Positions 27,501 through 30,677 of a stretch of DNA of 64,000 bases are shown piece after piece; positions within the stretch are counted from its first letter, which is position 1, and each line of letters starts with the position of its first letter. Made by a program: the position numbers and the translations under genes. Source of the stretch: Thermoleophilia bacterium (GTDB taxonomy: Bacteria > Actinomycetota > Thermoleophilia > Gaiellales > SKUG01); contig JBDHZF010000001.1 in NCBI GenBank assembly GCA_039811765.1, forward strand, positions 457 to 64,456, read 5' to 3'. Below the pieces are notes generated by a model. That model searched no databases. It was not told where the DNA came from and saw only the letters and a list, made by a program, of their open reading frames with translations.

Positions 27501-30500
27501 GCCACCAGCTGGACGGCGCCGACGCTCGCCGACGGCGCGCACACGCTCGGGGTGCGGGCGCGCGACAACGAGTCGAACACCACCGACGCGGGTCCGGCGT
27601 TCCCCGCGAACTTCCGCGTCGACACGGCCGCGCCGACCGTGTCGCTCGCCGCGCCCGCGGCGGGAAGCTGGACCAGCGACACCACGCCGACGCTCGACTG
27701 GAACGCGTCGGACGCGAATTGCCTCGCGCGCATCGAAGTGTCGGTGGACGGTTCGGCGGTCGCTGTGGCGTCGGGCACCGAGGGCAGCTGGACCCCCACC
27801 GCGCCGCTCGCGATGGGCATGCACACGTGGTCGTTCACCGCATGGGATTCGGCAGGCAACTCGACCACCTCCGGCCCGCATGCGTTCGGGATCGACACCG
27901 TTCCACCGAACCCGTTCGCGATCACGTCTCCGTCCACTGGCACGACCGTGCGCGGCTTCATCGACGTCACGTGGAGCGTGGCGATCGACGCCGACAGCGG
28001 CCTCGCGCCCGCCACCGCCTACCAGGTGCTTCGCGACGGATCGGTCGTCGGCTCGTACGGCCCGGGCGCGACGAGCGCGCACGTCACCGGCATCACGGCC
28101 GGCGCCCACACGATCGTGGTGCGCGCGTTCGACGCGGTCGGCAACGCGACCGACACGTCGTCCATCTCGTTCACGGGCTATCCAGCGATCGCGCCGCCCA
28201 CGCTCGTGTCGCCGGCCGCGGGCGCCTTCCTGAACGTCGTGCCCACGCTCTCGTGGAACTGGACTCCGGACGGTGGCCCGGCGCCCACGTCGTACGAGGC
28301 GATGGTGGACGGTTCGAGCGCCGGCATCACGACGCACCCCACGTCGTCGCTGGCGATCGCCGATCCGGGCGACGGCAACCACACGTGGCTCGTGCGCCAG
28401 ACCGATCCGTACACAGGCGTGGTCACTAGTCTGTCGCGCACGTTCGTGCTCGATCGCACGCTGCCGATCAACCCTGGCCCGCTCACGCGCGTGGCGACCA
28501 CCATTTCGTGGCCCGCGCCGATCGATCTCGCGTCGCCGGTGGCGAGCGGCATCGACCATCAAGTGTTCTTCGTCGACGACGGAAGCACGACCACATCGGC
28601 GACGATCCCGGCGGGCGCGACGTCGCACAACTACGGACTGCTGCCGGACGGCACCTACACGATGTGGGTGCGCGCGGTGGACCGGGCCGGCAACACGACC
28701 GACTCGCCCACGATCACCGTCGTGAACGACTCGGCGCCGCCCACAGCGTTCACATTGACCGCTCCCGCGGCGCTCCCGGCCGCGCCCGCGATCACCAACG
28801 GATCCATGACCGATCCGTCGTGCATGTCCGACCCGACGTACGTGACTGGCACGCCGACGCTTTCGTGGAGCGCGTCGAGCGACGCGACGAGCGGACTCGC
28901 CAGCTACGACGTGTACGTGGACGGCACACTCGCCGCTTCGGTCGGCGCCGGCGTCACCAGCTGGACGCCGGCAACGGCCCTGAGCGGCGGTGCCCACACC
29001 TGGTACGTGGTCGCCAAGGACAACTTCGGGCTCACCACGCAGTCAACGCCGCATCCAATGAACGTGCGGGTCGACGGCGCGTCGCCCACCGTCGCCTATG
29101 CCGCGCCGGCCGCTGGCGCGTTCACGTCCGACACCACCCCGGCGTTCTCGTGGACCGCCGGCGACGATTCGTGCCTCGCCCGCGTCGAACTCACCGTCGG
29201 CTCGAACGTGTACATGCTCACCGGCAGCGCCTCCAGCTTCACCCCGTCCACAGTGCTGCCGGAAGGACCGACGACGTGGTCGCTGCGCGCGTTCGACAGC
29301 GCCGGCAACGTCGTGTCCTCGGGCGCTCCGCGCACGGTGAACATCGACACGACCGCGCCGACGAGCGTGACCGCCATCTTCCCCACCAACAGCGGTAGCG
29401 CGCCCGAGCAGATGATGACGTTCCAATGGAGCGCCGGCAGCGACGGAAGCGGCTCGGGCGTGGACCACTACGACCTGATCGTGGACGGCGCTTCGTCGGG
29501 AACGGGCATCACCGCGACCAGCCGCGGCACGTTCCCGATCTACGCCGGCGCGCACACGTGGGCCGTGCGCGCCTACGACGCAGTGGGCAACTCCGCGCTG
29601 TTCAACTTCTCGTTCACCGCGACGCCGGTCCCGGACACCACGCCACCCAACGCGTTCAACTTGTTGACGCCCGCGGACGGTTCGACGCTGCCGACCGGCG
29701 GCTCGCTCACGTGGGAGCCCGCATGGGACTTCAAGGGCGTGTCGCAGTACCGGGTGTTCATCGACGGCACGTTCACCGCGAGCACGTCGGCCTCGACCAC
29801 GAGCTTCACGCCGTCGACCGGTTCCGGCGCGCCGCTGTGCACCGCGGACTTCGACCCCGGCACGTCGTGCGGCGGGTACGTGGGCGCGCCGACGTTCTCG
29901 TACGGAACCCGAGCGACGACCACCGCGAGCGGCCTCGCCTCGTACGCCCCGTGGAACAACATGTCCTACTCGGGCTGGTCGGCGAGCGGCGGCGCGATCG
30001 GCGTTGGCGATCCCACCGTGACGCCTCGGACCAGCGCAGCCGCCGGATACGATGGCAACCGCGCATGGACCGCGATGGAGTACTCGGTGACGGTCCCTGC
30101 CACGGGCGCCGACTTGCGCTTCCAGCATCGCTACGACTTCCACGCCAACGGCGAGTCCGGCTATGACGGAGGCGCGGTGGAAATCATGGTCGACAAGCTG
30201 AACGACGGTTTCGCCAACGACACGTGGGAAGGCACGTGCGTCAAGGGAACGAAGTCGATCAACGGCGTCACGCTCGACTGCAAGTACGACATCATGGCCA
30301 CCGACGGCGGCTTCAACGCCGCGATGGGCGGCTCCTCGAAGAACGAGCATCCGCTCGCCGCCGAAGCGGCGTTCTCGGGCAACTCCAACGGAATCGTGCA
30401 GTCGCGCATGAGCCTCGCCGACTTCGCCGGCAAGACGATCAAAGTGCGCTTCAAGATCGGCATGGACGGTTGCTACACCGGCATCACCGGATCGGCGAAG

Positions 30501-30677: not shown

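Follow-up and report, generated by a model that had tools for sequence, protein, structure and literature searches.

Giant RTX adhesins carry ligand-binding domains that bud from interrupted immunoglobulin (Ig)-like extender domains and so project off the fibre (PMC12077191). In these proteins, the chain leaves the extender domain at one of two points, either after its first strand or just before its last two (bioRxiv 10.1101/2025.09.30.679566). We analysed a 64,000-nucleotide stretch of DNA from a Thermoleophilia bacterium (contig JBDHZF010000001.1), hereafter the window, which contains a giant gene whose last Ig-like module is split by an insert of ~250 amino acids (aa). The encoded protein resembles Gram-negative RTX adhesins (MpIBP, FrhA, AhLap; Graham et al. 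2024 Proteins 92:933) in being a giant fibre of Ig-like modules, in having a complete globular domain that appears to bud from an interrupted Ig-like module which the chain then finishes, and in displaying a PA14/CBM-type domain in a split module. The insertion point before the last two strands is likewise shared (bioRxiv 10.1101/2025.09.30.679566). In contrast, the Thermoleophilia protein lacks both an RTX beta-roll and a C-terminal type I secretion system (T1SS) signal, ending instead at the G strand of its last module. It also has a putative Sec-type N-terminal signal and an actinobacterial host, no further domain follows its split domain, and the displayed fold is MAM-like; ‘MAM’ has 0 occurrences in the RTX adhesin survey preprint (10.1101/2025.09.30.679566). 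Membership among the RTX adhesins was rejected on the absence of beta-roll and T1SS signal and of any RTX repeat array in the whole protein, which has a single isolated GGxGxD at aa 1578. The split-domain design principle is known from RTX adhesins and no new mechanism is opened here; the novelty lies in the lineage concerned, in a Sec-type setting without RTX, in the placement at the very end of the protein and in a tip with a MAM-like fold.

The split of the last module

The gene and the parts of its last module were placed as follows.

18585–30677, plus strand: giant open reading frame (ORF), uninterrupted, 4030 aa, stop codon at 30675–30677
29637–29822, plus strand: N-terminal part of the split Ig/fn3-like module, aa 3685–3746, strands A, B, C, C' and E
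29823–30575, plus strand: inserted domain, aa 3747–3997, ~251 aa
30576–30674, plus strand: C-terminal part of the split module, aa 3998–4030, strands F and G, the last two

The last ~1100 residues of the product were cut into nine modules of ~90 aa (M1–M9) and aligned. Modules M1–M8 aligned end to end, and M9 forced one ~253-column gap in all eight others, located between ‘TSFTPST’ and ‘ALLPGSHTW’. A hidden Markov model (HMM) was built from M1–M8 only, with M9 excluded, and was searched against the 346-aa tail of the protein (aa 3685–4030). The N-terminal flank (tail residues 7–62) matched HMM positions 1–56 (E = 2e-9), and the C-terminal flank (tail residues 316–344) matched HMM positions 57–85 (E = 3.3e-7). 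The two matches abut exactly between positions 56 and 57, with zero model positions lost or duplicated. Because they adjoin in this way, the insert could be assigned to aa ~3747–3997 (nt ~29823–30575). The initial annotation, made from the letters of the window, had proposed that the last Ig-like module is split by a ~250-aa insert at 29826–30575; the contiguous HMM halves and the single gap agree with the split, and the earlier bounds fall within one codon of ours.

On the minus strand, a 598-aa ORF (29043–30839) overlaps the entire split module and the insert. A coding role for this mechanical, otherwise unsupported ORF was rejected. It was taken as a high-GC artefact (GC content in the window is evenly high throughout, 64–70%) because the plus frame is conserved at the protein level in all relatives.

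AlphaFold2 was run on the whole 346-aa tail with a 12-sequence family alignment. The resulting model had a mean predicted local distance difference test score (pLDDT) of 77 and a predicted template modelling score (pTM) of 0.71, and low confidence was confined to residues 1–4, 71–81 and 98–103. DSSP placed strands of the N-terminal flank at residues 9–11, 24–26, 37–42 and 45–51 (pLDDT 73–90) and strands of the C-terminal flank at 319–328, 334–336 and 341–345 (pLDDT 73–86). In a second model the insert was deleted by joining tail residues 1–61 to 313–346, with the window’s own M1–M8 as the alignment. This prediction gave a complete fn3-like domain (pLDDT 89.9, pTM 0.80) with strands at 9–11, 24–26, 35–42, 45–51, 68–78, 83–85 and 90–94, which correspond one-to-one with the strands that the flanks have in the model of the whole tail (offset 251). 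In Foldseek, the 95 residues of the insert-deleted model aligned over 91–96 columns with solved fn3/BIg domains at TM 0.59–0.71, namely CbhA (3pe9/3pdg), MtxA (4z29) and SiiE BIg (2yn3). The insert exits between strand E (residues 55–56) and strands F/G (319–328, 334–345), which is the E–F loop. With the insert taken out, the host Ig-like module is thus predicted to be complete, and its two flanks would belong to one sandwich, as the earlier proposal of a single interrupted module had implied.

Relatives of the tail were sought in sequence databases and in a genome collection. A word-indexed homologue search returned two fragments only, and the family was recovered by an exhaustive search of representative sequences, in which about ten 50%-identity cluster representatives matched the full insert at 40–72% identity. 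Every one of these relatives has an insert that ends 32–35 residues before the C-terminus, and a half-module precedes the insert in every relative whose sequence extends that far upstream. Across the 12 sequences, the tail following the insert was the most conserved stretch, with invariant L, G, H, W, A, D, G, N, S, T, W and F. Within the genome collection, only six loci, from four Thermoleophilia metagenome-assembled genomes (MAGs), carried the unit in full; all six genes are giant, run off the contig and stop directly after the tail. The remaining genome matches contained the MAM core only and came from Sorangium, Chitinophagaceae, Blastocatellia and others. MAGs RYN_238 (L003/L005) and RYN_237 (L004/L006) each carry the nested unit in two giant genes that are paralogues of one another, and these paralogues represent two insert subtypes, one with a long and the other with a short N-terminal insert segment. 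At locus L001, a run of N at ~6780 (a scaffold gap) breaks a homologous giant gene, and because of this gap the 292-aa database protein P0002 is an artificial fragment that starts inside the split module. When M8 followed by insert-deleted M9 was used as a query for orthologues that predate the insertion, there were zero matches, known relatives being likewise unrecovered.

These results bear on whether the nesting is real. The region could instead be made up of half a module that has been cut short, an independent terminal domain and a decayed 33-aa remnant, with no structural complementation among them, or it could be an assembly or frameshift artefact. The scaffold gap that breaks P0002/L001 indicates that such loci are error-prone, and the inter-strand contacts in the full-length model were inferred rather than inspected. 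Against this, the HMM junction is exact, the supposed remnant is better conserved than any other part of the region and has a fixed length of 32–35 aa in all relatives, the insert-deleted module reached pLDDT 90, and flank pLDDT rose to 90 in a full model of pTM 0.71. Moreover, the ORF is uninterrupted and the layout is repeated in independent MAGs and metagenomes. Since the order of half-module, insert, 32–35-aa tail and stop recurs in every full-length relative, it is no chance or assembly feature, and we consider a mere appearance of nesting very improbable.

The inserted domain and its relatives

The core of the insert was predicted at pLDDT 65–87 and was nearly all beta. The best Foldseek matches were MAM domains, those of RPTPmu MAM-Ig (2c9a), promeprin (4gwm) and neuropilin (5l73) (TMt 0.51), and further matches were found to InhA2 (4yu6), reelin subrepeats and a carbohydrate-binding module (CBM, 2c26). 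Foldseek probability was 1.00 for the RPTPmu, meprin and neuropilin MAM domains and 0.93 for InhA2. The eukaryotic MAM domains (meprin, A5/neuropilin, RPTPmu) are thus the closest structural matches to the model, and in RPTPmu (2c9a) the MAM domain is likewise packed against an Ig domain, yet in tandem and not nested. A match to them at the level of sequence was absent, both in the Pfam scan (PF00629, eukaryotic MAM) and in the PDB searches.

The sequence kinship of the insert lay with a bacterial family. An hhalign comparison of the insert with eleven InhA-like_MAM domains gave a probability of 99.7% (E = 2.7e-26) and extended over insert positions 84–251 and template columns 52–174 of 176, which places one further feature in the window.

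30069–30572, plus strand: insert core homologous to InhA-like MAM by hhalign, aa 3829–3996

The insert profile was also searched exhaustively against 1.84 billion representative sequences, and 539 proteins were matched at E <= 1e-3. Those scanned were M4 peptidases and other secreted proteins, most of which carried PF20773 above its cut-off, and other distant matches aligned with the MAM-like portion of models for M36 peptidases. Similarly, the NCBIfam model myxo_dep_M36, for a myxosortase-dependent M36 peptidase, matched over its MAM-like stretch (region 1043–1171; E = 9e-8). By these comparisons, the C-terminal two thirds of the insert are homologous to InhA-like_MAM, as a remote relative of PF20773 that scores below its threshold, and the models place the insert as a folded beta-sandwich of the MAM/InhA (M6)/M36-peptidase class. 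PF20773 is the MAM-like domain of immune inhibitor A and M6 peptidases (PDB 4yu6), and M4 and M36 peptidases carry it too, on their C-terminal side. The insert shares its beta-sandwich fold and its motifs F-x-H-x-Y, DGG-x-V-E, NPL...F-x-G-x-S-x-G, AG-x-x-V-x-x-RF-x-x-G-x-D and W-x-IDD. The insert differs in being ~80 aa longer, in lacking an attached peptidase and in being nested instead of tandem. Its extra length is accounted for by two loops that are specific to the clade, with a conserved Cys pair enclosing each of them, and there is an additional N-terminal Cys pair. The three family-wide pairs (columns 68/78, 201/215 and 279/291 in 346-aa numbering; aa 3752/3762, 3885/3899 and 3963/3975 of the protein) are likely disulfides. 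A peptidase or other enzymatic role for the insert was rejected, there being no HEXXH motif in the 4030-aa protein.

The initial annotation had likened the insert to a MAM, choice-of-anchor J or M6-peptidase class of domain, citing the motifs LRFQHRYDFHANGESGYDGG, KTIKVRFKIG and WRIDDLQL. These motifs are present in the insert, and the comparison holds at the superfamily level, given the hhalign result and the MAM matches in Foldseek; with its core predicted as nearly all beta, the insert also has the defined fold that was expected of it. The choice-of-anchor J part did not stand. Model NF038128 (cut-off 30 bits) had no match at E <= 1 in either insert or tail, and membership of the insert was rejected on these grounds. 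When ten proteins were scanned with this model (nine distant relatives and P0002), one relative scored 30.1 bits and another 18.9.

By eye, one database protein (P0012, 1200 aa) seemed to contain an InhA-like MAM domain nested in a different small beta-sandwich at residues ~920–1200. The host sandwich was read as ‘TINVTWQ...RLEFS’ before the MAM domain and ‘WTPITL...YAWTTP...CLRVRA...FRLV’ after it. If P0012 is read correctly, MAM-like domains may have entered host domains repeatedly.

Architecture of the fibre and placement of the MAM-like domain

A Pfam scan of the 4030-aa product matched Big_13, Big_7, Big_3_3, Big_3_2, fn3 and PA14. The sole strongly hydrophobic 19-mer region in the whole protein lies at aa ~11–33 and is followed by an AxA-type site (AEA before G), so that the segment is signal-like; there is no second hydrophobic segment. 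The protein contains 58 cysteines in regularly spaced pairs. No LPXTG motif occurs anywhere in it, and no SLH, LysM or other wall-binding signature was found in Pfam, NCBIfam and motif scans. The exact product has no identical entry on record. As judged from its sequence, this domain make-up is that of an exported fibrillar surface protein, for which we infer export of the Sec type. The first module is separated from the signal-like segment by ~190 basic-rich residues (aa ~36–222; window 18690–19250) without a match in Pfam or NCBIfam, a candidate retention or anchoring domain.

Near the N-terminus, a second domain appears to be nested in the same manner.

19500–19916, plus strand: PA14 domain, aa 306–444, Pfam PA14 E = 1.3e-26

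The PA14-bearing module (host aa ~225–500) could be aligned with five paralogous modules only with a single ~150-column gap, and by this alignment PA14 is nested in the first module of the second repeat type. The earlier suggestion that PA14 is also nested was therefore upheld.

The C-terminal modules upstream of the split one (window ~27290–29636, aa ~2903–3684) look duplicated as a block, in that M1-M2-M3 resemble M6-M7-M8 and M1 and M6 have in common an extra loop of ~22 aa. Modules M1/M2 hold one lone cysteine each (aa 2927/3046), as do M6/M7 (aa 3413/3530), which suggests an inter-module disulfide in each of the two pairs.

Two groups of Gram-positive surface proteins provide a comparison. 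Pilus tip adhesins of the RrgA type carry a vWFA domain inserted in Ig-like domains and are LPXTG-bearing, sortase-assembled and stabilized by isopeptide bonds. The Thermoleophilia protein shares with them a putative binding domain inside an Ig-like stalk domain, whereas the inserted fold differs and LPXTG is absent. Membership among LPXTG-anchored adhesins in general was rejected, given the missing motif and the location of the only hydrophobic segment at aa ~11–33.

We propose that the gene product would be a Sec-exported giant fibrillar surface protein formed by a long chain of Ig/fn3-like modules. In its last module, a ‘split domain’, the chain would leave the sandwich at the E–F loop after five strands and fold into a complete MAM-like jelly-roll of ~250 aa with three likely disulfides, one distantly related to the InhA-like MAM domains found in M6, M4 and M36 peptidases. 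The chain would then return to add strands F and G, where the protein ends, and the MAM-like domain would thereby be fixed rigidly to the last module of the stalk. In the fn3 topology, the E–F loop is at the C-terminal pole. Because the split module is also the last one, we infer a MAM-like cap at the distal end of the fibre, and a distal C-terminus is favoured by the N-terminal position of the only candidate membrane or retention element. The capping domain would most likely bind a ligand, either a glycan or a protein, and the nested PA14, a lectin-type domain, would offer a second binding site near the N-terminus. Taken as a whole, this reading of an exported giant fibre with a split last module and a MAM-like domain as its distal binding cap is in our judgement probably correct.

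Several points weigh against it. The insert-deleted prediction was aligned with intact paralogous modules and leans towards the intact fold, so it counts as supporting evidence and is no independent proof of one sandwich. Flank-to-flank contact in the full-length model, the geometry of the disulfides and the direction in which the insert points are deduced and not directly observed. The first ~45 aa of the insert, which vary across the family, were poorly predicted (pLDDT 43–71). Foldseek TM-scores of the whole 346-aa model were low (0.25–0.31), which we attribute to the two domains held by the query. A direct scan with PF20773 gave 21.4–21.6 bits (E = 1.7–1.9e-4) against a gathering threshold of 26.9 and was limited to profile positions 105–149, and neither the tail query nor the insert-profile query found a meaningful sequence relative of the insert in the PDB. 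Lastly, no ligand, binding site or anchoring mechanism was identified from the sequence and predicted models, and a literature search on what InhA-like MAM domains do in bacteria gave no usable result.

The polarity of the fibre could also be the reverse, with the MAM-like domain close to the cell, holding a cell-wall polymer non-covalently, and PA14 as the distal adhesive tip. Gram-positive fibrillar adhesins have such a layout, their adhesive domain being N-terminal and their anchor C-terminal, and the likely host here is an actinobacterium. PA14 is a recognised lectin-type adhesive domain and lies near the N-terminus. Cleavage at the AxA-type site may remove the N-terminal anchor, and some domain must retain a fibre that has no known C-terminal anchor motif. 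On the other hand, the scans found no LPXTG, SLH, LysM or other wall-binding signature, the sole hydrophobic segment is N-terminal, and the ~190 basic-rich residues before the first module could provide retention. In addition, no MAM-like or InhA-like domain is known to act as a wall anchor. We therefore regard the reversed arrangement as unlikely and retain the C-terminal cap as the preferred placement.

The MAM-like domain could also serve self-association, through homophilic fibre–fibre or cell–cell contacts or through the formation of a sheath or matrix, and bind no foreign ligand. The nearest solved folds include RPTPmu MAM-Ig and meprins, whose MAM domains make homophilic or oligomeric contacts, and two paralogues with distinct insert subtypes occur within single MAGs. 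The sequence kinship of the insert, however, is with the bacterial InhA-like branch and not with eukaryotic MAM (PF00629 unmatched), and the jelly-roll fold is equally common to carbohydrate-binding modules (2c26). A role confined to self-association seems to us improbable beside the binding of a glycan or protein ligand.

Genomic context and significance

Downstream of the giant gene, the window contains a convergent operon.

31026–35420, minus strand: ABC transporter operon with an SBP_bac_11-type solute-binding protein, two permeases and an ATPase with TOBE

A regulator of the Rrf2 family follows this operon, which is ordinary chromosomal context and unrelated to the giant gene. The upstream ORFs with Pfam matches are an RND transporter and a GMC oxidoreductase, and between these two lies a putative gene of 573 aa without a Pfam match (15076–16797, plus strand). 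No genes for a T1SS or other secretion machinery were present among the flanking ORFs scanned.

We see about even chances that split-domain display also operates in a Sec-exported, non-RTX family confined to Thermoleophilia, with an unannotated, disulfide-stapled InhA-like MAM domain at the tip. If this is true, split domains would mark ligand-binding domains in giant surface proteins generally, in different phyla and whatever the secretion system, and the heuristic of finding ligand-binding domains via split domains would extend beyond the RTX adhesins. It would also be the first adhesin context for bacterial MAM-like domains. The insert itself points to a part of the InhA-like MAM superfamily that is missed by present Pfam thresholds. 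The bounds obtained here (aa 3685–4030, insert 3747–3997) are precise enough to design a stable construct of the split module and its tip from an uncultured actinobacterial lineage. In practice, the finding is of value for annotating giant surface proteins in metagenomes, and it provides a lead to what Thermoleophilia attach to.

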